From Limnothrix sp. BL-A-16 (GTDB lineage: Bacteria; Cyanobacteriota; Cyanobacteriia; CACIAM-69d): DNA of 64,000 nt. Location: contig CP166615.1 in NCBI GenBank assembly GCA_041937175.2, positions 1,376,001 through 1,440,000 of the forward strand, given 5' to 3'. A program made the translations under genes and the position numbers. The notes under the pieces were generated by a model. That model worked only from the letters and a program-made list of their open reading frames with translations, did not search any database and was not told the origin of the DNA. Below, one piece after another: positions 1 through 41,246 of the stretch (its first letter is position 1; each line of letters opens with the position of its first letter).

Positions 1-692
1 CCGCCCAACTCCAACAGGGTTTTTTTGAGGTGGGTTCCGCAATGGCTCGCCAGGGCGCTGCCTGCCCCTTCGCTGCCGGTGAGGGTGGCCGCCGCGATTC
101 GCGGATCCGCCACCAGGGCCGCCACCCGATCGCTCCCAATCAGCAAGGTTTGGAAGATGCCCGCCGGAAACCCTCCCGCCAAAAATAAGTCCTCTAGCTT
201 TTGGGCCACCTGCGGCACATTGGACGCATGTTTCAGCAGGGCCCCATTGCCGGCCATCAGGGCCGGAGCAGCAAAGCGAAACACTTGCCAATAGGGAAAA
301 TTCCAAGGCATGACGGCCAAAATGAGGCCCAAGGGTTGATACCGGATAAAGCTGCGATGAGCATCAGTTTCAACCATTTCATCCGCTAAGAATTCGGCTG
401 CTCGATCGGCATAAAAACGACAAACGGCGGCGCATTTTTGCACTTCCCCGATCGCTGCGGTTAGGGGTTTTCCCATTTCCAAAACAGCCAGCCGGGCGAG
501 GGCTTCACAGTCTGTTTCCAGGCGATCGGCCACTTGATTTAACCAGGCTGCTCGTTGGGCGATCGGGACAGTTTGGTAAGCCTGAAAGGCGCGATCAGCT
601 AAATCCAGTTTGGCGGCTAATGCCTGATCCGTGAGCGGTTCAAAACGTTGAACCCATTGCCCGGTTGTGGGATTGACAGTTGCAATGGCCAC
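1..692 (-). CDS. gabD: NAD(P)-dependent succinate-semialdehyde dehydrogenase (aldehyde dehydrogenase family), N-terminal part; runs off the window start
   Basis: Manual minus-strand translation from GTG at 692 (AGGAGG RBS upstream) gives MAIATVNPTTGQW...; the window start reads LKKTLLELGG (ALDH catalytic Glu motif); also MPWNFP and TLTGS motifs. Confidence 0.8.
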   Translation of the reverse strand, partial: MAIATVNPTTGQWVQRFEPLTDQALAAKLDLADRAFQAYQTVPIAQRAAWLNQVADRLETDCEALARLAVLEMGKPLTAAIGEVQKCAAVCRFYADRAAEFLADEMVETDAHRSFIRYQPLGLILAVMPWNFPYWQVFRFAAPALMAGNGALLKHASNVPQVAQKLEDLFLAGGFPAGIFQTLLIGSDRVAALVADPRIAAATLTGSEGAGSALASHCGTHLKKTLLELG

Positions 693-1333
693 TGGACACC
701 TCCTAGATTTGTCCATGTCCCATCAGAACCGATTCTGCACTGACCCAAAATCGCTTAAGGATTGATCAAGTACCAATTCTGTTCTGAGTTAAAGATTGAT
801 TGAAGTATTTGTTAAAAGTCAATTAGTGATGAGCTAATCACGCCAAAACAGCGTTGAAGCAATAGCCAAAAACCAACGATTGAGAACCGATCAATAATGA
901 TTGAAAAAATAATTAAAGAAACGATTGAAAAGTTAATGGCCAGTCATTGCTGATCCATTTCTCATCGAATACCTATTCCTATCCTAGATGGGTTTTGGGG
1001 TCTAATTCTCGGTATTTCGCCAAAACTGTGTAACCTTATACAAAACTACATCATGCCAAGTGACCCTGGCCGCTGATTGGTCACTGATTGGTCAAACGAT
1101 TGCCCATTGGGATGCAGTGCTTTGCGATGGTCGGAAGCCTATCTTGAGTGGCTGAAGCGAAAGGTCGTTGTCTTGAATTGTCGCTCTTGAATTGCCGCTG
1201 TTTTTTGGATTAAGACTGTGCTGAGTTGCGCGTAACCTAATCGTTCTGCCGAGGTCGATTCAACCTTACCTGCGATTAACTGCCGCGTCACTGGTTTCTC
1301 AGCTCTCCTCTTAGTAACCCAAGGACAACTCCC

Positions 1334-4300
1334 ATGGCAACTTGGCTCCATCGCTCTGGTAATCGGTTGCTGGTGCTGCTGTTGTGGGGAAGTTGTTTGG
1401 GGAGCGGGGGCGATCGCGCCTGGGCCTTTAATCCCGAGCATTTGCGCCAACTGTTTGCCACCAATCAATGCGAGGGCTGTGACCTGTCGGGGGCGGATCT
1501 CAGTGGCCAGCGGATGAGCTATGCCAACCTGAGCGGGGCCGATTTGCGGGGCGCGAACTTATCGGGGGCCAATCTGAAGTCGGTTTTGGCTTGGCGTGCC
1601 AACTTGGCCGGGGCTAACTTGACGGGAGCCAATTTGGAAGATGCCACCCTGTCGAGGGCGAATTTGCAGGGGGTGAATTTGCGATCGGCCATCCTGGAGG
1701 ATTGCGATCTAGAGGGCACGGATTTGGCGGGGGTTGACCTCAGCGGCGTGGACTTGTCCAGAGTCAGTTTCAACGGAGCGAACCTGACAGAGGCCAAGTT
1801 GATGGGGGCCGATTTGTCTTGGGCGGAGTTAAACCGGGCGAATTTGACCAATGCTGATCTAACGGGGGCAATTCTGTTTGGGGCCGATTTGAATGGGGCG
1901 AATTTGACCGGGGCCAAGCTGGACGGAGCCAACATCGATGGGGCCGAAATGGCGGGGGTGATTGGCTACGGTGGCCCGCTGCCCAAGGAGGGGCCGGCAA
2001 TTCTAATTCAGGAGCAACCAAATTCGGCGGAGGGCGATCGCCTGTTGGAGCAGGGCGTGAACCTGTTGGGCCAAGGTCGGTTGCCGGAAGCACAGACCAC
2101 CTGGGAACAGGCCCTGGGAATTTATCGGCGCGATCGGGATGGGGCCGGAGCGGCGGTGACCATGGCTCAGTTGGCTATGGTCACCTTTCAGCGGGGGCAA
2201 TTGGATCAGGCGATCGATTGGGGATTCCAGGCGCTGAATCTGGCTCGGCAGGAGCGATCGGCCAGTGCGGAATCGGTGGCCTTGGGGATCATTGGCAATG
2301 TTCACTACGAGCGGGCAGATTATCTGAAAGCCCTGGAGTTTTATCAACAGCGGTTACAGGCCTCCGCTGGTGGGCCCTTCTACCATGCGGCTTTGATCGA
2401 TCGCGCCAAGGGGGCGATCGCCATTGGCGACTATGCCACCGGAATGCTCGACAGCTTGGAGGTGCTCAACGATCCGCTGCAAACGGCCACACCCGTTCGG
2501 CGCTTAGGAGCCTTGATCACCATGGTGCAAGGCCTGATCGGCGCAGGAGACTATGCCCAGGCTCGCCGCTACCTGAACGAAGCCCGCCAAGACCTGAAAG
2601 GGGTCAGCAATCGGCTGTGGGAGCCGGAGTTTTGGCAACTGAGCAGCGCCCTTGATCTGAACCAAGGCAACTTTACAGCGGCGATCGCAGCGGCAGAACA
2701 GGCCTGGGAAATTGCCCCCAGCCCCCGATTGAAATATGCGGCCCAACGCTCGATCGGCCTGGCCCAAGCGGCCCAAGGCAACTGGGGTGCGGCCATCAAA
2801 TCCTATGAAGCGGCGCTGAACATTGCCCAAACGGTGAACGATCGACGGGGCCGCGTGGAGGTGCTCAGTGATTTGGGGTTGGCTCTACACCAATCCGGCG
2901 ACCTAAACCGAGCGGCCAGCGTCCTCACCCAAGCGAGCGAAGGTTGGGATGAGCTGGTGCAAACCTTCATTGGCGAGGATTATTTCAAGGTGGGGTTCAT
3001 GGAGCTGCAAACCCAGGTTAATCAACGGCTTCAGGATGTGTACTTGGCTCAAAACCGCCCGGAACAGGCCCTGGTGGTGTCAGAACAGGGGCGATCGCGC
3101 GTGTTTTTGGACTTGATGATGGGGAAATTGGCTGCCCAAGGTCGTTTGGCTAACCCCGATTCCGCTGTGTCGGTGGAAAGCATCCAGGCCACTGCCCGAT
3201 CGCAGCGGGCCACCCTGGTGATCTACGCGGTTCAGCAAGAGGACAGCACGACCTATTGCAGCATCTACAGCAAGTCCTGCCAATTAACCACCGCCAAGCC
3301 CCAAACCAGCGCCCTCAACCCGCCGCCACCGGACAAGGTGAATATTTGGGTGGTGTCGCCCGAGGGACAAATTCACTTTCGGCGCGGCCAGTTACCTCAG
3401 GCCGAAAACCAGCCTCATCCCGTTCCCTTGAACGATTTGGTGAGCCGCAGCCGCAGCAAGGTGACCTTTCAACAGTTGCCCAGCCTGCGCCAACTCCACA
3501 GCCTGTTGATTGAACCGATTGTCGATCTGTTGCCCAAGGAGCCGAGCGATCGAGTGGTGTTTATTCCCCAAGGCACGCTGTTTTTAGTGCCCTTTGCGGC
3601 CCTGCGCAATCCCGATGGCCAATACCTGATCCAAAATCACACCCTGTCGGTCTCTCCTTCCATTCGCGTGTTGGCCCTGGCCAGCAGCCAACTGCCCCCA
3701 CTATCAGCGGGACAACCCCAACCCCTGCGCGGCCCGGCTTTGGTGGTGGGTAACCCAACCATGCCCCAAATTCCCGATCGCAACTTGGGCGACCAGGAGC
3801 GCTCCTTGGCCCCCTTGCCGGGAGCCAGCCTGGAGGCCCGGGCGATCGCCCAATTGCTGAACACTCAGCCCCTGGAGGGCGCAGCGGCCACCGAAACCGC
3901 CGTCACCGCCCGGATGGAAGAATCCCAAATTATTCACCTTGCCACCCATGGCCTGCTGGATGACTACTTCGGTGAGGGGGTCATTCCGGCGGTTCCGGGG
4001 GCTTTGGCGTTGGCTCCCAGCCCCAATCCGGAAGGGGATGACCAAGATGGATTCCTGACCACCGAGGAAATCTTGAACCTGAAGCTAAAGGCGCAGTTGG
4101 TGGTGCTGAGTGCCTGCGATACGGGACGGGGCCGACTCACTAGTGATGGGGCGATCGGGCTGTCGCGGGCGTTCATTGTGGCGGGTGCGCCCAGCACGGT
4201 TGTTTCCCTTTGGGCAGTGCCGGATCAGCCCACTTCGGAGTTGATGTTGACGTTCTACCGGGAATTTTTGAAGTCGGGCGATCGGGCCGCGGCCCTGCGG

Positions 4301-27514: not shown

Positions 27515-28283
27515 AGGCGCTTGACTGATTTTTTGGGGTGTGGTTTTCGCTCTGTTCACCAGTTCAAAAAGCAGGCCATAAGCTTGTAATTCAAAAGATC
27601 GATGGCATTGATCAATAATTTCTGGCCCCTGTGAGTGATTGCAAAAATGGCAGAAATTTTGAGTACCATGCCTATTTGAATGTTCAAGGATGCCTGACAG
27701 CCATCAGGGTTTATCTTTTTTGTTTGAAAATTGATCGCAAAATTACAACAAAGTTACGCAATTATTTGAATCTAATTTTCGAGGCTAATTTTTGAATCTA
27801 ATTTTGATGTTTATCTGATATTCGTTAATTCTGATATTTATTAAATTTCTATCATTAAATGATAATGCCTGTGAAGTGATGATTTTCATTGAAGATTACT
27901 GATGCAGTAAGGCTTTCACCTGCTCATCATTACTAAATTACGACACTACCCATTCAATTAAAGAACTATGGATAAGAAATTTAGCGTTTTGGCTGTAATG
28001 CAGAAAATCAGCAATAGAACTTGGCTAGTAATTTAATTGATTGTCTCATCAGCTTTTGAATGGATCCAGAAGCGGATCTTGAACAGCCTGAATCGTCTCT
28101 AAATTTCATAAACAAATGTTCTAGACTGGCCGCGGGGCGTATGGGATCAAATTTTTGCGAAAACTGGGTATGTTGCTTGTTGAGCAGCTCTCCCGAAACT
28201 TCAGCGATTTGATGGCATCTTGATTTTGATTGCGTCTTGATCTCGCTGGATCTGACTCCTACTCACTGCTTGTTGTTCTTACC

Positions 28284-31200
28284 ATGCATGTCTTGCGGAA
28301 CTTAGGTGGCTGCTCCTTCGTGGGGGCGGGCGTTGGGGGATGTTTAATAATTGCGGGAATTGCGGGTTTTTTGACGATCGGGAGCCTGGGTGCTGACTCA
28401 GGGGCGGCTTGGGCCCAGTCGATCGCCCCGGCGGCCGACGGCACGGGCACGGTGGTGACTCCCCAGGGCGATCGCCTTGATATCAGCGGCGGCAGTCGAT
28501 CGAGTGATGGGGCGAATTTATTTCACAGTTTTGAGCGGTTTAATCTCAACACCCAGGAAATTGCGAATTTCCTGGCCACGCCGGACTTGCGCAACATTCT
28601 AGGGCGTGTGGTGGGGGGCGATCCATCGCGCATTGATGGACTCATCCAGGTCAGCGGTGGTAGTCCCAATCTATTTTTGATGAATCCGGCGGGTCTGGTG
28701 TTTGGGCCCAATGCTCGGCTGAATGTGCCCGCTTCCTTCACGGCCACTACGGCTACGGGTGTGAGCTTTGGGGAGTCCGGGGAATTTTGGTTCCAAGCGA
28801 CGGGATCCAATCAATACGCGAATTTGCTGGGCGATCCGACGGGGTTGGCGTTTGCCTTATCGCAACCGGCGGGAATTGTGAACCGGGCGGCGCTGGCCGT
28901 ACCAACGGGCCAAAGCCTGAGTTTGGTGGGGGGCACGGTGTTGAGCGTGGGAACTCTGTCGGCTCCGGGAGGACGGCTGATGGTGGCGGCGGTTCCGGGC
29001 GATCGCTTTGTGCGGTTCACGCCGGAAGGATCGGTGCTGGCGTTGGATTTGCCGATCGGGGGGCGGCCCGGTGCGGATTTGACCTGGGGCCCGATCGCCC
29101 CGCGAACAATTCCGGAACTGCTGGCGGGGCAACCGGTCACGGCCAATGCCTTGACGGTGCGGCCCGATGGCACGGTTTCGATCGGCCATTCCGAGGGCCC
29201 CTTGGCGGCGGGGGATGTGGCGGTGCAGTCAGCCACGGCCGGAACGGCTACCCTGTCGGCGGCCAATAACTTGCTGCTGCTGTCTAGTCAGCTCAGCACC
29301 ACGGGCGATTTGCACTTGTTGGCGGGACAAGCGGCGATCGGGCGAGACAATCCCACAAATCCTTTACGGTTGAGTGCCGGGGGACAGTTGACCCTCTGGG
29401 GCGATCGGCAGGTGGATCTATACGGCTTGCACCACCCCGACAGCGGCATCATCAGTGATCACAGTCTTTTTTTAGTGAGTTCAGGGGCGATCGCTGGGAA
29501 TTTGCCCCTGCGCACGGGCGGTCAATTGTTTGTGACGCAACCGACGGGCGATCGGGTGCTGTTTCGCACGGTCTTTGAACCGATTTTCAGCGATCGCAGC
29601 GGTCAAATCACCCTCGCTTTCGGTACCACACCGGCCCGCAGCAATCGCGCTCCCTTCATTTCCTCGCCCGTGGTTGCGACCACCACCACCCGACCCACTA
29701 CGCCCTCACCCAGCAGCACCAGTTCCAGCAGCAGCACTGGCTCCACAACCCTACGTCCTGTCGTTCCTCTGAACCCCACAGGCACAGGGACAACGGGCAC
29801 GGGGACAACGGGCACGATCAACCCCGGATCCATCACCCTGATTCCCGGCACAACCAACGATCCCCCCACCACCAATCCAACCCTGAGCAATTCAGTGTCG
29901 CTGATTCCGGTGGCTCCCATGCAAACTGGCTCCAATTCCAGCACCACCAACACCACCGTTAGCGGCCTGAATACCTCCTTTAGCTTGATCCCGATCGCCC
30001 CTGTGGACTCGCCCACGACCAATTCCACCAGTTCAGAGGATGAGGACGATCGATCTGCTTTCTTGCCGGTGAAGCCGATCGTGGTGAACAACAATTCCAA
30101 CACCGGTAACACTGGTTCTTCATTCACGGTGGCTACGGTTAACCTCAGCCTTGATAGCGCGAACTTTGGTGGGTTGGTGACACCCACTAATCAAGGAATC
30201 CATTTCTCTACAGGTAAGTCGCCCATTTCGGCCCCTTGGGCTGCCAATGTGGATGGGTTAGTGCAGTCCACCTTGGCCAACACCACCGAGCAACCGGTGA
30301 GCGCGGGGGGAAGTAGCCCAGTGGCGGGAACTGTCAATGCTGGCAATACAAATCTGGTTGGCAATAACCTAAGCACGGCCATTAGTTCCGATGCGATCGT
30401 GCAGCGGGCGAATTTGGCTTCTGCGACCTTTGCGGCGAATCCGGGATCCGTGAACGGGGTTGCCGGAAATGTGGCTCCCGTAACCGGGGCAGTCCCCACA
30501 TCCGCGAATGTGTCGATCGCGCCTTCTTCCGGCCAGTCTCCCAATGCAGCACCTTTGGTTCCGCTCTCGGGGGTAACGGATGCGGCCAACAATTCGACGG
30601 TGGGAACCTTGGTGACGGGGCTACCGGTGAGCAGTAACCCCTTACCCAACAGTGGTGCGATTGGAGAGGGCGGCTCGAACCTGGCGCATTCGGCCGGCGT
30701 GGGCAATAACCAGGCCATTAGCCAAACGGACTTGCTGGGGCCCCGATCGCCCGGCTTGGAGGGCACAAATCCCTCGGGTATCCCCGCCAACGGCCCAGTC
30801 ACCGACCCGGGGCAAGTGTTGAATCTGCAAGCCTTGCGGGCCGAAACCCTGCAAGTGGCCCTTTGTGACAACACCGTTTGGTTAGATTGCCAACGCAAAG
30901 ACCTGGAACGGGCCCGCAACAGTGGCGATCGCAAGGCGATCGTGGTGGCCTTGCAGCGGTTGGGCCGGGCCCACTACCAAGCGGGTGAATATGGCGATGC
31001 GATTTTGGCCCATCGCGAAAGTCGTGATTTAGCGGCCGATCAGCCCCTGTTGGCCGCGATCGCAGAAAGTGACCTGGGCAGTAGCTACGGGGCTTTGGGT
31101 CAATATTCGGAAGCGATCGCCCATTACGGGCAGGCCTTGGCCCTGTTGCGATCGAACCCTGCGCCTACGTTGGAAAGCAATATCCTGAATAACTTGGGTC

Positions 31201-33032
31201 TGATAGCGACCAACCAACAAAACCTGGAACAAGCCCGCGCCTATTTTGAACAGTCCCTGGCGATCGCCCAGCAACATCGGGATTTGAGTAATCAAGCCCG
31301 CGCCCTCACCCAAATTGGCCTGCTGGATTACCAAGCCACGCGCTACGAGGCGGCCGTGAGGGCACATCAGGCCAGCTTGGCCCTGGCAGAGCAGGCGAAC
31401 GACCAACCGGCGATCGCCCGCACCCTCGATAATTTGGGTTTGGCCTACTATGCCCAAGGAGACTACGGGGCCGCGGCCACGGTTCAACAAAAGTCCCTGG
31501 CCCTGTCGCAGGCCTTGGGCGATCGCCATGGTACGGCGCGGGCCCTGTCCAACTTGGGAGATACGTACTATCGACTCCAAGACTTTGACGCGGCCACGGA
31601 TTATCTGCAGCGGGCGATCGCCTCTTGGGAACAGGTGCGCGAAAACCTGACCAGTGATGGGGCCCGGCTGGCGATTTTTGAGACCCAAGAAACCACCTAC
31701 AGCACCTTGCAAACGGTGTTAATTGCGGCCCAAAAACCAGAACAGGCCCTGCTGGCCAATGAACGGGGCCGGGCCCAAGCCCTCTTGAAACTGTTGGCGG
31801 AAGAGAGTCAATGGGCCGATCGACCCGCCGCGCGATCGACCCCAACCCCTAACCCATCGGAATTGACGGACTCGATCGACTTAGCACAAATCCAGCGGGT
31901 GGCCCGCGAGCAGTCCGCCACCCTGATTTCCTACGCGATCGAGCGGGATACCCGAGACCACGGAGGCCAACGCCAACTCCTCGACTTGGCTATCAATATT
32001 TGGGTGGTGCAACCTTCGGGACAGGTGCATTTTCGCCAAGTACCCTTGCCCAACAGCCAAACCTTGCGCGATCAAATCCCGTTGCTGCGGTTGTTTTTGG
32101 GAACACGCACCGCCAGCCGATCGGCCCAGTCCACGGTGAACGGCAACCGGCGATCGATCACCCCCGGTTTGCGCCAGCTCCATCGCCTGTTGATTGAGCC
32201 GATCGCCGAATGGTTACCCACCCAACCGGGCGATCGACTGATTGTGATGCCCCAGCAGGATTTGTTCCTGGTGCCCTTTTCCGCCCTGCAAGATGACCAA
32301 GGCCGATACCTGATCGAGCGCCATAGTTTGGCCATGGCTCCTTCGATTCAAGTGCTCGATCGCACCCAACACCAGGCCCAGCGCCTGCGCCAGGAAGGAA
32401 CAGCCCTGACCGATCGCCCCTTGATCGTGGGTAATCCAACCATGCCGCGCTTGCCCAGCAGCCGATCCAATACCCGATCGCAATTGGCCCCGCTGCCCAA
32501 TGCGGAAATCGAAGCCCAATCGATCGCCCGCATGTTGAATGCTCGCCCCCTGTTGGGATCCCAAGCCACCAAAACCGCCGTCTTGGGGCAAATGGAGCAA
32601 GCCAGCCTGATCCACTTGGCCACTCACGGGATTTTGGATGCGAAACATGGCCTAGACAGCGCGATCGCCCTGGCCCCCGGCAACAGCCCGGGGGATGACG
32701 GTTGGTTAACCGCCCGAGAACTGCTGAACCTGGACTTAAAGGCGCAATTAGTCGTCCTCAGCGCCTGCAACACCGGCCAAGGGGCAATTTCCGGCGATGG
32801 AATTGTGGGCTTATCCCGATCGCTCCTGGCGGCCGGAACCCCCAGCGCGATCGTCACCCAATGGGCCGTACCCGACGCACCCACCGCCTTCCTGATGACC
32901 CAGTTCTATCAATTCCTGGGGCAAGGGATGGATAAGGCGGCGGCCTTGCGCCAAGCAACCCTGAGAACTATTCAGGAATATCCCGACCCGATCGACTGGG
33001 CCGCCTTCACCCTCATCGGCGACACCCGCTAG
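28284..33032 (+). CDS. Filamentous-haemagglutinin (TPS) N-terminal domain / low-complexity linker / TPR / CHAT protease
   Basis: Signal AWAQ; NLFHSF..F, NILGRVVGG..S.IDG, NLFLMNPAG; TPRs; LIHLATHG, VLSACNTG, WAAFTLIG. Confidence 0.9.
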   Translation: MHVLRNLGGCSFVGAGVGGCLIIAGIAGFLTIGSLGADSGAAWAQSIAPAADGTGTVVTPQGDRLDISGGSRSSDGANLFHSFERFNLNTQEIANFLATPDLRNILGRVVGGDPSRIDGLIQVSGGSPNLFLMNPAGLVFGPNARLNVPASFTATTATGVSFGESGEFWFQATGSNQYANLLGDPTGLAFALSQPAGIVNRAALAVPTGQSLSLVGGTVLSVGTLSAPGGRLMVAAVPGDRFVRFTPEGSVLALDLPIGGRPGADLTWGPIAPRTIPELLAGQPVTANALTVRPDGTVSIGHSEGPLAAGDVAVQSATAGTATLSAANNLLLLSSQLSTTGDLHLLAGQAAIGRDNPTNPLRLSAGGQLTLWGDRQVDLYGLHHPDSGIISDHSLFLVSSGAIAGNLPLRTGGQLFVTQPTGDRVLFRTVFEPIFSDRSGQITLAFGTTPARSNRAPFISSPVVATTTTRPTTPSPSSTSSSSSTGSTTLRPVVPLNPTGTGTTGTGTTGTINPGSITLIPGTTNDPPTTNPTLSNSVSLIPVAPMQTGSNSSTTNTTVSGLNTSFSLIPIAPVDSPTTNSTSSEDEDDRSAFLPVKPIVVNNNSNTGNTGSSFTVATVNLSLDSANFGGLVTPTNQGIHFSTGKSPISAPWAANVDGLVQSTLANTTEQPVSAGGSSPVAGTVNAGNTNLVGNNLSTAISSDAIVQRANLASATFAANPGSVNGVAGNVAPVTGAVPTSANVSIAPSSGQSPNAAPLVPLSGVTDAANNSTVGTLVTGLPVSSNPLPNSGAIGEGGSNLAHSAGVGNNQAISQTDLLGPRSPGLEGTNPSGIPANGPVTDPGQVLNLQALRAETLQVALCDNTVWLDCQRKDLERARNSGDRKAIVVALQRLGRAHYQAGEYGDAILAHRESRDLAADQPLLAAIAESDLGSSYGALGQYSEAIAHYGQALALLRSNPAPTLESNILNNLGLIATNQQNLEQARAYFEQSLAIAQQHRDLSNQARALTQIGLLDYQATRYEAAVRAHQASLALAEQANDQPAIARTLDNLGLAYYAQGDYGAAATVQQKSLALSQALGDRHGTARALSNLGDTYYRLQDFDAATDYLQRAIASWEQVRENLTSDGARLAIFETQETTYSTLQTVLIAAQKPEQALLANERGRAQALLKLLAEESQWADRPAARSTPTPNPSELTDSIDLAQIQRVAREQSATLISYAIERDTRDHGGQRQLLDLAINIWVVQPSGQVHFRQVPLPNSQTLRDQIPLLRLFLGTRTASRSAQSTVNGNRRSITPGLRQLHRLLIEPIAEWLPTQPGDRLIVMPQQDLFLVPFSALQDDQGRYLIERHSLAMAPSIQVLDRTQHQAQRLRQEGTALTDRPLIVGNPTMPRLPSSRSNTRSQLAPLPNAEIEAQSIARMLNARPLLGSQATKTAVLGQMEQASLIHLATHGILDAKHGLDSAIALAPGNSPGDDGWLTARELLNLDLKAQLVVLSACNTGQGAISGDGIVGLSRSLLAAGTPSAIVTQWAVPDAPTAFLMTQFYQFLGQGMDKAAALRQATLRTIQEYPDPIDWAAFTLIGDTR

Positions 33033-33111
33033 TTCTCTCCAATAGACTCCTGCCCAAAAGGTGAGCGTTGATGAATTCCAATCTCACCAGCGCCGCAAGT
33101 TGGGGAAACGA

Positions 33112-33120
33112 TGCTATACT
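33112..33120 (+). promoter_or_regulatory. Extended -10 promoter element for the riboswitch-led transcript
   Basis: TG-C-TATACT 7-8 nt upstream of the riboswitch 5' end. Confidence 0.55.
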
Positions 33121-33127
33121 TCACCGA

Positions 33128-33241
33128 GTCGGTTCTAGCGGGGAGCAGCCGCTAGAGGTAACGGGGAAAGTTCGGTGTGAATCCGGCACTGTCCCGCAGC
33201 TGTGAAGGAGAAGTGTTTCTCCGAGTCAGAATGCCCGCCGA
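33128..33241 (+). ncRNA. Cobalamin (B12) riboswitch
   Basis: GGTTCTAGCGG..CCGCTAGAGGTAACGGGGAAAGTTCGGTGTGAATCCGGCACTGTCCCGCAGCTGTG...GAGTCAGAATGCCCGCCGA matches the B12-element core; upstream of metE. Confidence 0.93.
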
Positions 33242-33279
33242 TTCAATCCTACAAAGCCCTAAACATCTGCGAGGTACAG

Positions 33280-33393
33280 ATGAACTTACAGCATTTTGCT
33301 GACGACCGCCAAAGGCTTGGGTCGTCAAACTTTTACAGTGCAACGCTTCAGCTCAGCACCTTAGCCGTGCCTCCCTGTTCGACTAATTCCTAA
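33280..33393 (+). CDS. Putative 37-aa leader ORF directly under riboswitch control
   Basis: The hairpin CATCTG-CGAGGTA-CAGATG contains the GAGG SD and the ATG; translation is not proven. Confidence 0.35.
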   Translation: MNLQHFADDRQRLGSSNFYSATLQLSTLAVPPCSTNS

Positions 33394-33772
33394 GTCCAGG
33401 CGGGCGCAGACCCCAATTCCCTCCAAGAGCTGACCGCTAGGGCCATCCGGTTTCTACCCAATGGCAAGGGCCAATCACGATGACCGGAGACTGATGATCA
33501 GGCCTCCCGATCGCTGATTGCATTCTGGACTTCCTCTAGATTGTGAGAAACCCGATCGCCCGATCAAAGTCAGCGGGACTTGGTGTTAGCGAGACTAAGA
33601 AGGCTGACAAACTTAACCTTCGTCGCTCTCACCAGTGACAAACTCCAGCACAGGGGCACAACCGCAAACCTTGTGGATTCAGCCCCCCAGCGAGACTCGG
33701 GCACCCTCAAATTAATGCCCATACTCGCTGCATTTTGGCTGGATTAGGTCTGTCTGTCGCCTGGGACTTGGG
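33389..33772 (+). ncRNA. Large multibranch structured RNA in the metE leader (unassigned)
   Basis: Long closing helix 33389-33428 / 33733-33772 plus at least five internal helices found by manual pairing. Confidence 0.45.
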
Positions 33773-33904
33773 TTCAACATTCATCCCTTGACATCGCGCG
33801 GCCTTGCCTAGCCGATCGGTGGGTGTTCTGTTCGATCAAGCACCCCTCAACTGCGCTGTCATCATCACTCAAAATTTCGCAAAATTTCAGGAGCCTCGAT
33901 TCCC

Positions 33905-36154
33905 ATGGTTATTCAAACCGCCACCTTGGGCTATGCCCGCATGGGCAAAAATCGTGAAGTCAAAAAGGCCCTAGAGTCTTTTTGGCATGGCAAGTGTGAG
34001 ATCAACGCATTGCGATCGACCGTAGAAGCTGTGGAAACCCATGCTTGGACAGTTCAGTTAAAAGCTGGGGTCGATCGAATTGCCGTCGGAGACCAAACTC
34101 TTTACGACCACGTTCTAGATTGGTCAGTGCGTCTGGGGCTAATTCCCGCTCGGTTTCGGCAGTTCACAGGCATTGATCAGTACTTTGCGATGGCCAGGGG
34201 CAAAGACGGGATTCCTGCACTCGAAATGACGAAATGGTTTGATACCAACTATCACTATCTCGTGCCCGAAATTGAGTCTGATCTTGTTCCCACGGCCAAT
34301 TTCGATGATTTCCTAGCAACGGTCAAGCGAGCACAGCTCATTCTCAGCGATCGGGCAACTCCCGTGATCCTCAGTCCGATTACGCTGCTCACCCTCAGTC
34401 GGCGCTCCAACGATCTCTACTCGGATTTAGATCGGTTGCTGCCTCTTTACCTTGACCTACTGGGGCAGTTGAAATCCCTGGGAATCACCGAGGTGCAATT
34501 CCATGAGCCAACCTTAGTAACCAGTCATGCCGGTGATTTAGAAACTGCAATTAAACATACCTACCATCAACTAGCAACTGCGGGGTTGCCGATTCAACTG
34601 GTCACCTACTTTGATGATTTGGGGGATGCCTATAACTGGGTGATGCAGCTCCCGGTAGCTGGAGTTAGCCTCGATTTCACACGAAGCAACAATCTATCTT
34701 TAGTGAAAACCCATGGCTTTCCTCACGACAAAGTGCTTGGGGCCGGTGTTGTGGACGGGCGGAGCGTTTGGGCCATTGAACCCAAGGGTCTGTTGGAACT
34801 GCTTCAGGAATTGCAGGCAATCACACCAAATTTGCGTGTTCAGCCCTCCGCGTCACTCCAGTTTGTTCCCCATGATGCAACCTGCGAAGCTCAACTCCCG
34901 CAACCTTTGCGCGATGTCCTCAGTTTTGCGGAGCAAAAGTTAACGGAAGTGGTGTTGCTGGCAAGCGGCCTCAACGGACAAGACACGACCAACGAGCAAG
35001 CTGCGATCGAGTTGCGTTGGCAGGCATTCAAGCATTTCAACTTACCTAACCCGGCAGTGCGCGATGTGTTACAAACCCTCAAGGTAGAGGATTTTCAGCG
35101 CTCCCTTCCCTATGAACAACGGCTGAATCAGCAACCCAAACTTCCCCCCCTGCCCACCACCACGATCGGTTCTTTTCCGCAAACCCAAGACATTCGACAA
35201 CTGCGGCTCCGATACAAAAAAGGGGAAATTTCCCAAGCGGACTATCACCAGGCGATCGATACCAAAATTGCAGAGTGCATCAAACTCCAAGAGGACGTTG
35301 GGCTAGATGTGCTAGTGCACGGTGAGTTTGAGCGAACTGACATGGTGGAGTATTTTGGACAGCAACTCCAGGGCTTTGCCTTCACAACGGATGGATGGGT
35401 GCAGAGTTATGGCAGTCGTTGCGTTCGCCCACCCATCATTTATGGTGATGTGTCCCGACTGCAACCCATGACCGTTCGGGAGTTTCAAGTTGCACAATCA
35501 TTGACAGATAAACCGGTGAAGGGAATGCTCACGGGCCCGGTCACCATGATCAATTGGTCATTCCCTCGGGCTGACCTCCCGCGCCGTGAACAGGCCATGC
35601 AGATTGCGCTGGCTTTACGAGATGAGGTTGCCGATTTGGAAGCCGCTGGCGCTGTCATGGTGCAAGTGGATGAACCGGCCCTCCGGGAAGGATTGCCCTT
35701 GAAATCTGCTCGGTGGAATGAGTACCTCAGTTGGGCTGTGGATTCGTTCCGATTAGCCACCGGTGGCGCGAAGACTGAAACCCAAATTCACACGCACATG
35801 TGCTATTCCGAGTTTGGAGACATTATTGAGCACATTGAACGCCTTGATGCGGATGTTCTATCCATTGAAAATAGCCGCAGCAACAACGCAACGCTCTTTG
35901 AAATCACGGATGCTGGATATCAGTATCAAGTTGGGAACGGGGTCTATGATGTCCACAGCCCAAGCGTTCCCAGTGTGGAACAAATTCTTCAGCAGTTGCG
36001 CACGGGTGCTGATCGTTTGCCTGTTCAGCAAACCTGGATTAATCCTGACTGCGGGCTAAAAACTCGCCAGTGGGAAGAAGTGCTTCCTGCGCTCAAAAAT
36101 ATGGTGCTCGCCACGCAAAAGCTACGGGAAGAAATTCATGATTCATCCCACTAG
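33905..36154 (+). CDS. metE: Cobalamin-independent methionine synthase
   Basis: EMTKWFDTNYHY, PTTTIGSFPQT, VHGEFER.DMVEYFG, HTHMCYSEF, WINPDCGLKTR; AGGAG RBS. Confidence 0.97.
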   Translation: MVIQTATLGYARMGKNREVKKALESFWHGKCEINALRSTVEAVETHAWTVQLKAGVDRIAVGDQTLYDHVLDWSVRLGLIPARFRQFTGIDQYFAMARGKDGIPALEMTKWFDTNYHYLVPEIESDLVPTANFDDFLATVKRAQLILSDRATPVILSPITLLTLSRRSNDLYSDLDRLLPLYLDLLGQLKSLGITEVQFHEPTLVTSHAGDLETAIKHTYHQLATAGLPIQLVTYFDDLGDAYNWVMQLPVAGVSLDFTRSNNLSLVKTHGFPHDKVLGAGVVDGRSVWAIEPKGLLELLQELQAITPNLRVQPSASLQFVPHDATCEAQLPQPLRDVLSFAEQKLTEVVLLASGLNGQDTTNEQAAIELRWQAFKHFNLPNPAVRDVLQTLKVEDFQRSLPYEQRLNQQPKLPPLPTTTIGSFPQTQDIRQLRLRYKKGEISQADYHQAIDTKIAECIKLQEDVGLDVLVHGEFERTDMVEYFGQQLQGFAFTTDGWVQSYGSRCVRPPIIYGDVSRLQPMTVREFQVAQSLTDKPVKGMLTGPVTMINWSFPRADLPRREQAMQIALALRDEVADLEAAGAVMVQVDEPALREGLPLKSARWNEYLSWAVDSFRLATGGAKTETQIHTHMCYSEFGDIIEHIERLDADVLSIENSRSNNATLFEITDAGYQYQVGNGVYDVHSPSVPSVEQILQQLRTGADRLPVQQTWINPDCGLKTRQWEEVLPALKNMVLATQKLREEIHDSSH

Positions 36155-36572
36155 CCCAAGGTTGTCAAACCTGACTGTTGGCTTACCCAACGTTATTCAG
36201 GATAACTTCCTGTACATCGGCTATGTTGCATGGCAAGGCCACCTCCAATATGGACGAGGGATGGTGGCTTGTACAGTGCAAGAAACGGTGACTAATCGCT
36301 TGGGTGGGATTGAGGATGTAACAGCAAGGTCTGTGCAATATATTCCGTTCGACCTTGCTGCTTTATACCTTGACCTTTGCCTTGTGCCTGTTAGTTCAAT
36401 CGATCGCCTGTTGAGCGTGATCAAAACCTATGCACCCGATCGAGAGATTTTGATTTTGGTCAAGCAAGGTCAAGATGTGGAGATTGACTGGCTGCAAAAC
36501 CTAGCAATTTCACCTTCTGAGTGTTATCGCCAAGTGTGCGATCGCTGGTCAGAGTTTAATCTGGCTTCTTAA
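36138..36572 (+). CDS. Hypothetical protein, paralog of 38886-39353
   Basis: Overlaps the metE stop by 17 nt; shares GY.AW...L..GRG.V.C and ISP...Y..VC....EF.L with the downstream paralog. Confidence 0.75.
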   Translation: MIHPTSPRLSNLTVGLPNVIQDNFLYIGYVAWQGHLQYGRGMVACTVQETVTNRLGGIEDVTARSVQYIPFDLAALYLDLCLVPVSSIDRLLSVIKTYAPDREILILVKQGQDVEIDWLQNLAISPSECYRQVCDRWSEFNLAS

Positions 36573-36672
36573 CTCAACAGAGGCTGGATTAACACCAAGG
36601 ATTGCAGTGTTGATGATTGCTTCGGCGGATCAGCTCGATGCATGAGCTAGTTCATTGTGTTCTCTTTCATTT

Positions 36673-38052
36673 ATGAATAAGCAGTCGATTTTGGCATTGG
36701 CAGACCATCCCACTGTGGCAGTGACAGGGCGAGTGGATCAGTGGCTCCATGATCCTGCGGGGCGGCTGCCGGTGAGCTGTACGGTTCTGGCTGTGCAGGA
36801 TCGAATGGATGGCCCGGATGGCATTGAAGATAGTTGGCATTTCACGAGCCAGGCCCTCCGCTATGGGGCTGGTGTTGCGATCAACTTGTCAGCGCTTCGG
36901 CCTGCGGGTACGGTTTCGCCGAATGTCACAGCCTCTGGCCCCACATCTTTTGCCCGCATTTACAGCGTCTTGAATGAGACGATCCGCCGGGGCGGTCGAT
37001 TTAAAAACGGGGCGGTCAATTTGCATTTGGATAGTCATCACCCTGATGCTCAGGACTTTATTAAGATTCCAATCGATCGCTTGCCTTGGGCTAAACGCAC
37101 GCTAATTGTTCATGATGATTTGCTGCAATTGCCATACCTGAATGACATCATGGAGCAAATGCAATCCGGCAGTTTGTGGCTCTCCAAAGCTCGGACGGAT
37201 GCTGCGGGAAATGTGCTGTATGGCAATGTTTGCAATGAAATTTTTTTGCCGTCACGGGGAACCTGTTTGCTGCAACATGTCAACTTGGGAATGTGTTGCA
37301 TTGAGGATATTCCTGATGCTTTCGAGCATGGCATGAAGATGCTCTGTTCAATTCATCCCATCACTGGTGTGGGTGAGAGTAGCCTTTATCGATCGCCCGA
37401 ACATGATCGACAGGTGGGGTTGGGGGTCATTGGCTTGGCATCGCTTTTGGCGATCGAAAGCGTTACCTATCGCGAGTTGGTGGAAGCTTGGGAATTGCGC
37501 CTGCGGCCGATCGACCACGCAAGAAGTCAAACCAAGGCCGATCGATTAGTGAACAGCCTAATTGAAGGGTTCGATCGCGCGGCGGCTTGGGCCCGAAAAG
37601 AGGGAATGGAGCGCAGTCTAACGATCGCGCCAACGGCTTCCTGTGCTTATCGCTATGTTGATCGCGATGGCTACACAACAACACCGGAAATTAGCCCCCC
37701 GATCGCCTGTGAAGTCGATCGCTACAGTGGTGTTTTTGGGATCCAAACCTATGATCATCATCCCCGAGTAGAAACTGCTTCAGAAGTGGGATATGAGGAC
37801 TATTTCCGGCTGGCCAATTGTTGGCAGCAAAGCATGGAAGCGACGGGACAGGCTCACTCGATATCCTTCAACATTTGGGATACCCAGGTGATTGATCAAG
37901 ATTTCCTAGAAAAATGGATGCGATCGGCACTTTGGACAACCTACTATCGATTGCCAGTCCGTCAACAATCCGCCCTTGATAAAACCATCATTCAACAGAA
38001 ATCGTTAACTTGCGATCTGTCGGCTGATGAATGTGTTGCTTGTGCTGAATAG
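36673..38052 (+). CDS. Minimal ribonucleotide reductase catalytic (alpha, NrdA-like) subunit, cyanophage-like / class Ø type
   Basis: About 460 aa; GRLPVSCT, finger loop GNVCNE (NxCxE), TCLLQHVNLG, QVGLGVIGLA, IAPTASC, TTYYR dyad, C-terminal CVACAE; no ATP-cone. Confidence 0.88.
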   Translation: MNKQSILALADHPTVAVTGRVDQWLHDPAGRLPVSCTVLAVQDRMDGPDGIEDSWHFTSQALRYGAGVAINLSALRPAGTVSPNVTASGPTSFARIYSVLNETIRRGGRFKNGAVNLHLDSHHPDAQDFIKIPIDRLPWAKRTLIVHDDLLQLPYLNDIMEQMQSGSLWLSKARTDAAGNVLYGNVCNEIFLPSRGTCLLQHVNLGMCCIEDIPDAFEHGMKMLCSIHPITGVGESSLYRSPEHDRQVGLGVIGLASLLAIESVTYRELVEAWELRLRPIDHARSQTKADRLVNSLIEGFDRAAAWARKEGMERSLTIAPTASCAYRYVDRDGYTTTPEISPPIACEVDRYSGVFGIQTYDHHPRVETASEVGYEDYFRLANCWQQSMEATGQAHSISFNIWDTQVIDQDFLEKWMRSALWTTYYRLPVRQQSALDKTIIQQKSLTCDLSADECVACAE

Positions 38053-38064
38053 GAAGCATTTCTG

Positions 38065-38784
38065 ATGGACTTTTACACTGAACAATTGGCTCGCAAGCGC
38101 TCCTGGACACCCACTTGTGGCGAAAGGATGAACACAATGCCGGGCGCGGATCAAGTTTTGGGGCGGGCCCTGGCGCTGCGTGTTCTTGAATTAGAAGTGG
38201 CGGAATGGCTAGACGACGCTTTGGGCAAAACGACACTTCCAGCAACAGCAGTTGAATGTCTGCGCTCTAATATTCTTGATGAAGAACGGCACGACAAAGT
38301 GTTAGGAATGGCCGCTCAAATCTATCAACTGACGACCGATAGGGACGAAGCAGAAGCCAAACAAATTCATCAGCAATGGATTCATCATCCTGACCATCCA
38401 TTGGTCAAGGCCTTCGTGTTGGAAAATTCCGTCTTCTTTGTGATTCTGCCCTTGCTGCGGATGTTTGGTGGCGTGGGTTTGGGAATCATCTCAGGCGATA
38501 TTTCCGGTGATGAATCTGTCCATGCGGCCGTCCATCGCCAAGCAGCGCATGATCTAGGATTGACCTACAGCAGTTCCTTAGATCGTCTTAGAAGAGATAC
38601 CGTTGGTTGGCTGGTGGATGGCTTGCGAATCCCGGAAGCGGGACGTTCTGGGAAACCTCAACGTTGGTTGGATGCGTCAGATAGTTTGCTCTATCAAGGG
38701 GCTTCTGATTTGGTGGAAACCCGTCGCGCAATTCAGCCTGCATTTTTTGAAATTGCTAACGATGCCCTACCGAGCTATCGGTAA
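38065..38784 (+). CDS. Ferritin-like ribonucleotide reductase small (beta, NrdB-like) subunit
   Basis: 239 aa, 12 nt after alpha; ligand pattern LELEV / DEERH / LENSVFF / DESVH; C-terminal LPSYR. Confidence 0.83.
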   Translation: MDFYTEQLARKRSWTPTCGERMNTMPGADQVLGRALALRVLELEVAEWLDDALGKTTLPATAVECLRSNILDEERHDKVLGMAAQIYQLTTDRDEAEAKQIHQQWIHHPDHPLVKAFVLENSVFFVILPLLRMFGGVGLGIISGDISGDESVHAAVHRQAAHDLGLTYSSSLDRLRRDTVGWLVDGLRIPEAGRSGKPQRWLDASDSLLYQGASDLVETRRAIQPAFFEIANDALPSYR

Positions 38785-38885
38785 CTGGTCAGATAATGGC
38801 TTGAGTTCTATCACTGACAATCATAATTTTCAGCATTTTCGACCATGGGTTTTGATCTGAAGTTGTGACGAGTTGGAGTTTTTGG

Positions 38886-39353
38886 ATGGCGACATCTTCT
38901 TCTGACTGGCAGGAGTCCTTTGTTGCCACAAATTTAATTGCTCTGGGATATAACGCTTGGAGTAATTATTTGGCGGGAGGACGAGGTGCAGTGATTTGTA
39001 GCTTGAATTTACCGCAGCTCAACATCACAGGAGAAACATTTCGTACCCATTATGTTGTGAGATCACGACTCGCTGCATTTTTAAATGCCTGGCTAGCCTT
39101 TCCTGATACGGTGATTCTGAATCATCACCATATGAATGGTCATATCTTACAAGCCGTTGACAGCTACAATCCCGAAACCGATCTGGTTTTGTTGCTGGAA
39201 TCTGGCGCGCAAGCCGCTTTTTTATATTTACGCGCTTTGCCCATTTCGCCTCCTAAAAGTTATCAGATCGTTTGTCAAATTCAAGATGAATTTCGTCTAG
39301 AACAACCGAACGCTGCTGAGTTGGGGCAATCTGGAATTGGTCTGAATTTTTAG
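38886..39353 (+). CDS. Hypothetical protein, paralog of 36138-36572
   Basis: GGAG RBS before ATG 38886; shared motifs as above. Confidence 0.75.
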   Translation: MATSSSDWQESFVATNLIALGYNAWSNYLAGGRGAVICSLNLPQLNITGETFRTHYVVRSRLAAFLNAWLAFPDTVILNHHHMNGHILQAVDSYNPETDLVLLLESGAQAAFLYLRALPISPPKSYQIVCQIQDEFRLEQPNAAELGQSGIGLNF

Positions 39354-39449
39354 TGAAATAGGCTGCGGCCGGTCGGTTTCTGGAGCGATCGCCCTATTCG
39401 ATCGCCCCAACTGCGATATTCTGGTCTGTGCATTGCTCCTGGCTGTTTT

Positions 39450-41246
39450 ATGCGTCTGTCCCAAGCCCTGTTCGTCACCCTTCGTGAAGACCCCGCCGAA
39501 GCCGTTGTCACCAGCCACAAGCTGTTGCTACGCGCGGGCTACATCCGCCAAATCGGGAGCGGTATCTATGCCTATTTGCCCCTGATGTGGCGGGTGTTGC
39601 AGAAGGTGTCGCAAATCGTGCGACAGGAAATGGACGCGACGGGCGCGCAGGAATGCCTGCTGCCGCAATTGCAACCGGCGGAACTGTGGCGCGAGTCGGG
39701 CCGTTGGGATGTGTATAAAGCAGAAGGAATCGCCTTCACCCTGAGCGATCGCGCCGATCGGGAGCTGATGCTCGGGCCCACCCACGAGGAAGTGATCACC
39801 ACCGTGGCCAAGGAATTAATCCGTTCCTATCGCCAACTGCCGGTGAATTTGTATCAAATTCAAACCAAATTCCGCGATGAAATTCGCCCGCGCTTTGGCC
39901 TGCTGCGGGGTCGCGAATTCATCATGAAGGATGCCTATTCCTTCCACACCTCGCCCGAAAGCCTGAAGGAAACCTACGACGCGATGGATCAGGCCTATCG
40001 GAATATGCTGCGCCGCTGTGGCCTGAAATTCCGGCCAGTGCAGGCGGATTCCGGGGCGATCGGGGGCAGTGCGTCCCAGGAATTTATGATCCTGGCGGAA
40101 ACGGGCGAAGACGAAATTTTGTTCACCGAGGACGAGCAATACGCCGCCAACGTGGAAAAAGCCGTGTCGCTGCCGGTGGATGCGGTTCCCTCGCCCTTTA
40201 CGAGTTTTGAAACCCTGGAAACGCCGGACACCAACACGATCGCCCGGTTGTGCGAGGTGCTGAAGTGCGACCCAACCCAGGTGGTGAAGAACGTGCTCTA
40301 CGAAGCCTTGCTGGATAACGGCAAGCGGGTGCTGGTGTTGATTAGCATTCGGGGCGATCGGGATGTGAACGAGGTGAAGTTGTTCAACGCGATTACCCAA
40401 CGGGCCCCGAACTACGGCGGCTCGAAGGTGTTGGCCCTGAAAGTACCCGACGCGGCGGCCCAAGCGGCTTGGACGGCCAAACCCTTGCCCCTGGGTTATA
40501 TTGCACCGGACTTGAGCGACGACCACATCGCAACGGCCAAGGACACGGCTCCCCAATTCCTGCGGCTGGTGGATCCGAGTGCCAGCCAGCTCCAGAACTT
40601 CGTGACCGGTGCGAACCAAGCGGGCTATCACGTCGTGGGTGCAAACTGGGGAACTCAATACCAACTACCGGAAGTGGTGGAACTGGATGTGGCCCGGCCG
40701 GGCGATCGCGCGGTGCATGACCCCTCGCAAACCCTGCAATCGGCGCGGGGCATCGAAGCCGGTCACATTTTCCAATTGGGGCTGAAATATTCCCAGGCCA
40801 TGAGCGCAGCTTTCACGACGGAATCCGGCGAAAGCCAGCCCTTTTGGATGGGCTGCTATGGCGTGGGGGTGTCGCGGATTGCCCAAGCGGCGGTGGAACA
40901 GTCCCACGACAAAAACGGCATCATTTGGCCCGTAGCGATCGCCCCGTACCAGGCGATCGTGACCGTGCCGAACATTGCCGACGAGAACCAAATGGCGATC
41001 GCCCAGCAGCTCTACACCGACCTAAACGCGGCGGGCATCGAAACAATCCTGGACGATCGCGAAGAGCGGGCCGGCGTGAAGTTCAAGGATGCGGATTTGA
41101 TCGGGATTCCGTTCCGGGTGGTGACGGGCCGGGCGATCGCCCAAGGCAAGGTGGAACTCGTAACCCGCGCCACGGGAACGGCGGAAGAAGTGGCGATCGC
41201 TGAGTTGGTCAGCACGCTGCAAACCAAGATTGCCGAAGCCCTGTGA
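39450..41246 (+). CDS. proS: Proline--tRNA ligase
   Basis: [66 protein letters not shown]. Confidence 0.97.

Follow-up and report, generated by a model that had tools for sequence, protein, structure and literature searches.

It is established that cobalamin (vitamin B12) riboswitches repress B12-independent isozymes. Repression of this kind was reportedly described for nrdAB in Streptomyces by Borovok et al. in 2006, and the metE riboswitch of Picosynechococcus PCC 73109 is said to have been validated in vivo by Perez et al. in 2016. B12 elements also precede the B12-independent nrdDG genes of Desulfovibrio and Desulfuromonas in genomes that carry nrdJ, a pattern described earlier for ribonucleotide reductase (RNR) and methionine synthase isozymes (PMC545781). 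Here, we analyze a 64,000-nt stretch of the genome of the freshwater cyanobacterium Limnothrix sp. BL-A-16 (contig CP166615.1, positions 1,376,001 to 1,440,000; hereafter, the window), in which a cobalamin riboswitch leads metE, a hypothetical gene (hypA), the alpha and beta genes of a class Ø RNR, and a second hypothetical gene (hypB). We consider it probable that this ~6.3-kb block is a horizontally acquired, riboswitch-headed "low-B12" operon, whose RNR is repressed by B12 and serves as a backup for the B12-dependent enzyme NrdJ.

Class Ø was proposed in 2022 as an ancestral RNR clade, according to the excerpted text of PMC9531940, and Harrison et al. (2019, PMC6370689) argued that cyanophages carry class Ø enzymes because these free them from relying on the B12 of the host. 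The plasmid-borne NrdA and NrdB of Acaryochloris MBIC11017 were listed by Lundin et al. (2010, PMC3019208), the excerpted part of which does not mention a riboswitch. A literature search returned no paper linking class Ø or a Limnothrix RNR to a riboswitch among the matches listed, with supplements lying outside the search. What is new at this locus is the RNR class, its joining with metE in one acquired cyanobacterial island, the regulon family that flanks it, and a likely expression platform built on an upstream open reading frame (uORF).

A class Ø ribonucleotide reductase beside metE

Among Protein Data Bank (PDB) chains, alpha matched 7urg_A, the alpha subunit in the cryo-EM structure of the Synechococcus phage S-CBP4 enzyme, best (E 2.1e-128). 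The next chain was the class I entry 6dqw_A (E 2.1e-10), the best class II chain had an E of 2.4e-8, and alpha scored far below the cut-offs of all NCBIfam class I and II models. The protein is minimal: at 459 aa it falls within the ~410-470 aa expected of the class, it lacks an ATP cone, and the barrel domain PF02867 is its sole Pfam match. Its key residues comprise the catalytic Cys of the finger loop, a redox Cys pair in the active site, a stacked YY dyad, and a C-terminal CVAC; residues C36, C187, C198, Y424-Y425, C454, and C457 were invariant in a 21-sequence alignment. These features are those listed for class Ø in the excerpted text of Burnim et al. (2022, PMC9531940).

The beta protein matched phrog_6799 over its full length (E 2.8e-70) and had no PF00268 match and no PDB match by sequence. 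Its metal-binding motifs (E42, E73xxH76, E120, and E150xxH153) were invariant in nine sequences. Leu80, four residues after H76, is invariant as well, and we take it to be the equivalent of the class Ia radical Tyr site, assuming the rule that places this site four residues past the first His. The tail ends in SYR, with Y238 invariant. Beta adjoined alpha in 69 of 81 loci; alpha reached within ~220 nt of the locus end in 9 of the 12 that lacked a beta match. The first-pass annotation of this DNA had likened the pair to class Ø and had set alpha apart from NrdJ, and both readings are borne out by the 7URG match (2e-128, versus 2e-10 for the next chain) and by the class Ø hallmarks of beta. We infer that the enzyme needs no adenosylcobalamin and uses a ferritin-type metal cofactor.

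MetE was identified by TIGR01371 (940.3 bits; cut-off, 929.95) and NF003556 (984.7 bits), with the domains PF08267 (Meth_synt_1, E 1.5e-102) and PF01717 (Meth_synt_2, E 1.2e-150). All five genes are under purifying selection (dN/dS 0.03-0.35), with values of 0.10 for alpha, 0.03 for beta, 0.05 for hypB, and 0.08 for metE relative to Limnothrix redekei.

The B12-dependent counterparts

The Limnothrix genome that we searched is 100% complete. It encodes an intact MetH (1535 bits) and, at C1:1366964-1371340, some 5 kb ahead of the window, an NrdJ of the monomeric RTPR type. Against a cut-off of 340.05, TIGR02505 matched this NrdJ in two pieces, one of 345.5 bits and one of 399.8 bits. The open frame (C1:1366841-1371355, also L129 1342-5856), which ends ~4.6 kb short of window position 1, encodes 1504-1512 aa and has no stops; it carries an RNR-II insertion domain plus a ~700-aa insert with Intein_splicing and LAGLIDADG homing-endonuclease domains between the TIGR02505 pieces. 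No credible match to NrdD or to a PF00268 beta was found in the genome. The first-pass annotation had allowed that the genome might hold no B12-dependent RNR, leaving the island enzyme as the sole one, and the TIGR02505 and MetH matches set that concern aside.

Because the genome holds two copies of cobQ, Limnothrix appears to make its own corrinoid, to use it for MetH and NrdJ, and to sense it through three riboswitches. With NrdJ, MetH, and cobQ all present, the logic of a backup therefore applies. When the chromosomal contig C1 was scanned for NrdR boxes with a 16-nt consensus, no site matched at least 14 of 16 positions, and the surroundings of nrdJ and of the island yielded nothing of use, so that the scan was uninformative.

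We had to reject one reading of the RNR complement. TIGR02504 and PF02867 matched only the class Ø alpha, as if it were the sole RNR; this was doubted because four relatives and an S. elongatus control were equally silent, which is impossible for a free-living cell, and TIGR02505 then found NrdJ. PF02867 and TIGR02504 thus miss the cyanobacterial monomeric RTPR-type NrdJ, and TIGR02505 is the only one of these models to detect it. As a warning for annotation, surveys that use PF02867 or TIGR02504 would wrongly score such genomes as having no class II RNR.

A related view, that class Ø is the main aerobic RNR, that the intein-interrupted NrdJ is secondary or defective, and that the module is no backup, strikes us as very improbable. 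Its attraction lies in the ~700-aa homing-endonuclease intein of NrdJ and the strong purifying selection on alpha and beta, but the NrdJ frame is open and both of its halves exceed the equivalog cut-off. In addition, class Ø is missing from the congener and from all 400 other sampled cyanobacterial genomes (no alpha match at E <= 1e-20), so NrdJ-type enzymes suffice in these relatives. An essential sole RNR behind a B12 off-switch would also be hazardous in a B12 producer.

A putative ligand-gated uORF in the leader

An Rfam scan of the window returned one family only, Cobalamin (RF00174). The match, at 61.5 bits (gathering threshold, 31.5), is to the full-length aptamer of a cobalamin riboswitch, and compensatory changes occur in its helices across 12 cyanobacterial homologs. 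It is one of three cobalamin riboswitches in the Limnothrix genome, the other two leading cbiMQO and DUF1636-hupE-cobW. Judged by homology, it would bind a corrinoid and lower downstream expression.

Downstream of the aptamer, a platform hairpin was predicted in 12 of 12 aligned riboswitches, with GAGG in its loop and AUG in its 3' stem. Across this alignment, CUGCGAGG is invariant, substitutions in the stem preserve pairing, and the start codon lies 5-12 nt 3' of GAGG. The motif was found again in 14 of 19 further riboswitches, including the leaders of PCC 73109 metE and Acaryochloris nrdAB. In Limnothrix itself, the equivalent GAGG and start codon of the other two riboswitches begin cbiM and the DUF1636 gene directly. 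In metE- and hyp-type leaders, the gated codon opens a nonconserved ORF of 18-53 codons (10 of 10), and 11 more leaders, among them those of Acaryochloris nrdAB and PCC 73109 metE, have a uORF of 22-38 codons. The frame and length of the Limnothrix uORF are preserved in L. redekei.

The hairpin is thus likely a ligand-gated ribosome-binding site for the leader uORF, and the uORF-type platform that these riboswitches seem to have in common is new here. From the end of the aptamer to the metE ATG there are 648 nt, a distance missing from the first-pass annotation. A stem within the uORF (33300-33334) is conserved between the two Limnothrix strains; it is our speculation that this stem would suit an attenuation mechanism.

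Operon structure and related arrays

The gaps between the genes are -17 nt (metE/hypA), 100 nt (hypA/alpha), 12 nt (alpha/beta), and 101 nt (beta/hypB). The ORF and Rfam results match the riboswitch, the five co-oriented genes, and all four gaps as first annotated. The single promoter that had also been proposed was not confirmed, as a sigma-70 scan found no site upstream of the aptamer.

Related arrays clarify how the RNR genes came to stand here. In PCC 73109, the order is riboswitch-metE-hypA-desaturase-methyltransferase-flavin adenine dinucleotide (FAD) hydroxylase-hypB, with no RNR. In L. redekei LRLZ20PSL1, the DNA of which is 92% identical to the window, it is riboswitch-metE-hypA-94-aa ORF-methyltransferase-FAD hydroxylase-alpha-beta-hypB. 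The window corresponds to the L. redekei array minus a 2.65-kb segment that holds the 94-aa ORF, the S-adenosylmethionine (SAM) methyltransferase, and the FAD hydroxylase; sample X10, at 98.5% identity, has the window's shorter form. Comparison of the three arrays therefore places the RNR pair inside a conserved riboswitch operon, ahead of hypB, with genes on both of its sides that occur in cobalamin-riboswitch operons of other cyanobacteria. Alpha and beta would have been inserted into a pre-existing metE-hypA-...-hypB operon and would share its transcript. Another RNR arrangement was found on plasmid pREB6 of Acaryochloris marina, which reads riboswitch-uORF-nrdA-nrdB-hypB (65% identical)-DUF1636-cobW.

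We infer that metE and the RNR genes lie on one transcript. Weak evidence for this comes from RNA-library contigs, which bridge metE/hypA (X1, 35720-36228), hypA/alpha (X5, 36382-36929), and alpha/beta (X5, 37719-38645). The contigs of X1, X4, and X5 leave 38764-39331, in hypB, uncovered, from which we draw no conclusion. One 396-nt contig in X4, deeper than the metE contigs, takes in the aptamer's 3' half and runs on through the leader to 33575; it is suggestive of a short leader RNA, though contig depth cannot rank regions.

A different arrangement would have the riboswitch govern only metE, and perhaps hypA, with alpha-beta driven from a promoter of its own in the spacer, constitutively or with the cell cycle, and its adjacency to metE a by-product of assembly. 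We regard this as unlikely, though it deserves to be taken seriously. The 100-nt spacer before alpha contains a 9/12 promoter-like site, TTAACA-17-GATGAT (36589-36617), and a small, weak hairpin (36632-36648), so an internal promoter is possible. This spacer, however, differs between two close strains. Alpha starts 61 nt after the FAD hydroxylase in L. redekei, and only the last ~13-18 nt 5' of its ATG resemble the window, so the two strains have no dedicated promoter in common. Promoter-like sites are also fewer than chance would give (2 sigma-70 sites in 8.7 kb, versus 6.3 +/- 2.1 in shuffles). More broadly, promoter and terminator scans gave nothing above shuffles, and no terminator signal above chance lay between the genes. 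Two arrangements of genes also argue against separate control: hypB, downstream of the pair, belongs to the regulon yet has no separate riboswitch, the window holding a single one, and the Acaryochloris array has its sole riboswitch ahead of nrdAB, with DUF1636-cobW following.

B12 control of the RNR seems to us the better-founded expectation, and one that will probably hold, but several observations weigh against it. The platform looks translational, and the gated uORF ends 511 nt before the metE start and 3.3 kb before alpha; cyanobacteria are not known to have Rho. A gated element so far upstream suits a separate alpha-beta promoter, as do cellular class Ø loci elsewhere that have no riboswitch. 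The two that we inspected, L017 and L018, had none within reach by Rfam or nhmmer, so the link is not general to class Ø. The bridging contigs are not strand-resolved, could include DNA carry-over, and cannot prove a single transcript. Finally, class Ø was not yet biochemically characterized according to the excerpted text of a 2026 preprint (PMC12918982).

Beside these comparisons, we noted three genes that turn up repeatedly in cobalamin-riboswitch operons (L142 5863-9382, on the PCC 73109 plasmid; L015 4366-6951; L113; L115; L116; L184; and others). One resembles fatty-acid desaturases, one encodes a CMAS/UbiE-like SAM methyltransferase with 75-84% identity between genera, and one encodes an FAD-dependent hydroxylase. 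The three may constitute an unrecognized B12-independent pathway. The PCC 73109 plasmid also carries a c-di-AMP (ydaO-type) riboswitch (63.7 bits; L142 1591-1754, minus strand) ~440 nt from the cobalamin riboswitch. Some 100 nt downstream of the c-di-AMP element is the permease gene of a nitrate/bicarbonate-type ABC transporter (654-1493, minus strand).

Probable acquisition of the island and its phylogenetic position

It is the whole riboswitch-metE-...-hypB island that looks atypical and acquired, and not the RNR alone. The block at 33033-39353 has a GC content of 0.44-0.54, a third-position GC content (GC3) of 0.39-0.54, and 1 HIP1 site in 6.3 kb, against a GC content of 0.552 and 1.15 HIP1 sites per kb for the Limnothrix genome. 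On either side of it, proS has a GC content of 0.60, a GC3 of 0.745, and 6 HIP1 sites, and the upstream CHAT gene has a GC content of 0.60 and 12 HIP1 sites. The congener G001 lacks the entire block; its similarity to the window holds from 39385 on (proS, 94-96% identity), with unrelated AT-rich sequence leftward. These results agree with the first-pass annotation, which had noted by eye that the block is lower in GC and HIP1 than proS and had suggested acquisition.

Two of the genus's three genomes carry the class Ø alpha, whereas 38 other relatives, counted at the level of class Ø, all lack it; G002 is its only carrier among 40 relatives. A weak 29% match in G020 belonged to another RNR type and was discarded. 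At E <= 1e-30, alpha had no match in 72,556 plasmid records. The alpha-beta pair is conserved in many Limnothrix strains, and the closest relatives of alpha, at 77-80% identity, are P0006-P0008 and fragments in Desertifilum and Fischerella records.

We built a quick IQ-TREE phylogeny of 76 class Ø-like sequences with no class I or II outgroup, which shows position within the clade only. A starred branch separates all four phage references from Limnothrix, and every one of the 10 sequences whose contigs are at least 69 kb long clusters with the latter. The nearest neighbors of Limnothrix are cyanobacterial, followed by a Dehalococcoidia-type group. By this tree, alpha is on the cellular branch of class Ø and not on the phage branch, so a phage donor for what the first-pass annotation had called a "phage-type RNR" is not supported. 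"Cyanophage-like" is a fair term for the enzyme class, though not for the donor. By comparison, 78 of the 80 metagenome loci were of the phage branch; when these 80 and L015 were scanned with nhmmer for the riboswitch, only L015 gave a match.

That the RNR pair is a cyanophage or prophage leftover without host function is an idea to which we give next to no credence. Class Ø is best known from cyanopodoviruses, and 56 phage records match alpha, but all do so at less than 60% identity (45-51%), and the phage references fall across the starred branch. The first-pass annotation had already seen no phage structural genes nearby; the flanks are indeed a 1600-aa TPS/TPR/CHAT protein (5') and proS (3'). 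A dN/dS of 0.03-0.10 and the retention of the pair in many Limnothrix strains also speak for a function in the host. Directly 5' of the riboswitch, the 1600-aa protein (28230-33032, plus strand) combines TPR repeats with a TPS secretion domain and carries a CHAT protease domain at its C terminus.

The hypA/hypB family

The two hypothetical genes are paralogous (27% identity, E 4e-14), and hypA had no Pfam, NCBIfam, or PHROG match. Our genome survey indicates that they represent an unannotated family that is a regular member of cyanobacterial B12 regulons. Members turned up in 45 of the 401 cyanobacterial genomes sampled, spread over 25 of 156 genera. A co-oriented cobalamin riboswitch lies upstream in 9 of 9 adequately flanked loci from close and distant relatives and, when one further locus was taken from each of 20 genera, in 16 of these (nhmmer E 1e-22 to 1e-38); the four loci without it include one weak match on a short contig and one pseudogene.

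Typical arrays read riboswitch-metE-hypA-hypB, riboswitch-DUF1636-hypA-methyltransferase, riboswitch-cobW-hypA, and riboswitch-desaturase-methyltransferase-hypA, and in Calothrix and Nostoc a family gene precedes cobW and TonB/ABC uptake genes. HypA overlaps the metE stop by 17 nt in the window, in G027, and in PCC 73109, and lies directly 3' of metE in G018. In other cyanobacteria, riboswitch-led operons have genes 3' of metE, hypA, DUF1636, or nrdB that share 52-66% identity with hypB. On plasmid pREC2 of Acaryochloris marina MBIC10699 (L143 3340-7456), a hypB-family gene stands 10 nt after a plasmid-borne metH, so the family accompanies B12-dependent as well as B12-independent enzymes.

We modeled hypA with AlphaFold2 (AF2; pLDDT 81, pTM 0.74). 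The top matches of the model were CcmS (Foldseek E 4e-6, probability 1.00, TM 0.53-0.58), and VIA comparison with CcmS gave Z-scores of 8.6 (over 114 of ~130 residues) and 8.0, the next unrelated entry scoring 4.6. The family is accordingly modeled with a CcmS-like fold. Matches of hypA to eukaryotic tethering-complex clusters in the ESM Atlas (scores 0.90-0.93) were treated as chance. CcmS is a beta-carboxysome assembly chaperone in Synechocystis, according to excerpts of PMC11635287 (PDB 8ZLH, 9IUR, and 9IV7).

Three further observations concern this family and its neighbors. Genomes of genus g32 (e.g. G178:C101, G217:C179, G186:C1:1288412-1288844, and G421:C110) contain extra family copies with 2-7 in-frame stops, which look like decaying paralogs. 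At L192 4133-9430 (G359:C36), the gene next to riboswitch-metE-hypA-hypB is a downstream proS (65% identical, opposite strand), and proS also adjoins the Limnothrix island. At L178 2871-6291 (G067:C1), a riboswitch-led metE matches in two pieces ~1.2 kb apart, which could reflect an insertion or an intein.

Proposed mechanism and implications

We propose that plentiful (pseudo)cobalamin would bind the aptamer, whereupon the hairpin would hide the GAGG and AUG of the leader ORF and expression of the genes 0.5-5 kb downstream would drop. The B12-replete cell would then run on MetH and the intein-bearing NrdJ. Under scarcity of B12 or cobalt, the operon would be on and MetE would take over methionine synthesis, while the class Ø alpha2/beta2 enzyme would take over deoxynucleoside triphosphate synthesis without adenosylcobalamin. 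The other two riboswitches would meanwhile de-repress cobalt uptake through cbiMQO and DUF1636-hupE-cobW. We advance only tentatively a fuller version of this scheme, in which class Ø is a riboswitch-gated, B12-free stand-in for NrdJ, the uORF licenses a multi-kb operon without Rho, and hypA and hypB are helpers in B12 economy; all parts together are somewhat doubtful, if well worth entertaining.

The proposal would mean that one acquired island bypasses both B12-dependent reactions of a cyanobacterium. The class Ø enzyme would stand under a B12 off-switch although its host, a cyanobacterium that can be cultured, bears NrdJ; this would amount to independent genomic evidence of the enzyme's B12-independence and would provide a test host. 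If true, this would be the first physiological role for the "ancestral" class Ø and in vivo evidence that it has no need of B12. Likewise, hypA and hypB would be a new class of B12-economy helpers, occurring alongside metE, metH, nrdAB, class Ø RNR, cobW, and DUF1636 downstream of cobalamin riboswitches throughout the phylum.

Features of the locus

Table 1. Coordinates within the window of the island's features and its right-hand neighbor.
Feature	Position	Strand	Basis or remark
Cobalamin riboswitch aptamer (RF00174)	33113..33256	+	cmscan 61.5 bits, E 8.7e-13, model 1-189
Hairpin 3' of aptamer, CAUCUG-CGAGGUA-CAGAUG	33264..33282	+	Likely expression platform (gated ribosome-binding site)
Leader uORF, 37 codons, start = gated start codon	33280..33393	+	Putatively translated
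metE, cobalamin-independent methionine synthase, 749 aa	33905..36154	+	TIGR01371, NF003556, PF08267, PF01717
hypA, 144 aa, A-type member of the CcmS-fold family (predicted)	36138..36572	+	ORF, AF2 model, paralogy
hypA-alpha spacer, 100 nt	36573..36672	+	Differs from L. redekei
Class Ø RNR alpha, 459 aa	36673..38052	+	7URG match; ATG kept in L. redekei
Class Ø ferritin-like beta, 239 aa	38065..38784	+	phrog_6799
hypB, 155 aa from ATG 38886 (162 aa from GTG 38865)	38886..39353	+	B-type member of the CcmS-fold family (predicted)
Right edge of island	39354..39384	.	Similarity to congener G001 restarts at 39385
proS	39450..41246	+	ORF downstream of hypB

Comparison with known systems

The modeled fold of hypA is like that of CcmS, but the two share 14-18% identity, and the neighbors of hypA are genes for B12 and cobalt rather than for the carboxysome; we do not take the fold to imply a common function. 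The class Ø (Cyano SP) RNR of S-CBP4 resembles the Limnothrix enzyme in its minimal alpha (470 versus 459 aa, 49% identity), which has no ATP cone and shares the YY dyad, the redox cysteines, and a C-terminal double Cys. An adjacent beta of ~240 aa, with a redox-inert residue at the radical site and a penultimate Tyr, is also common to both. Unlike the S-CBP4 gene, that of Limnothrix belongs to the chromosome of a free-living cyanobacterium, branches with the cellular sequences, has a CXXC rather than a CXC tail, and stands behind a riboswitch.

The metE operon of PCC 73109 (plasmid NZ_CP014003) shares with the Limnothrix island the same CUGCGAGG platform, a uORF (of 38 codons), the 17-nt overlap of hypA with metE, and the terminal position of hypB. 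It differs in having no RNR and in containing the desaturase-like gene, methyltransferase, and FAD hydroxylase that the Limnothrix window lacks. Conversely, the array on Acaryochloris pREB6 does have a riboswitch and a short uORF followed by RNR alpha, RNR beta, and a hypB homolog, but its enzyme belongs to class I (NrdAB, the alpha being 960 aa long), DUF1636 and cobW come after it, and there is no metE.

The riboswitch systems of nrdDG and nrdAB are alike in principle, as each has a B12-independent RNR led by a cobalamin riboswitch, with NrdJ also encoded by the genome, following the logic of metE versus metH. The Limnothrix island differs from them in that the RNR is of class Ø and not of class Ia or III, stands in one array with metE, and belongs to a cyanobacterial host, and in that the short uORF which its predicted platform gates lies a long way 5' of the genes.

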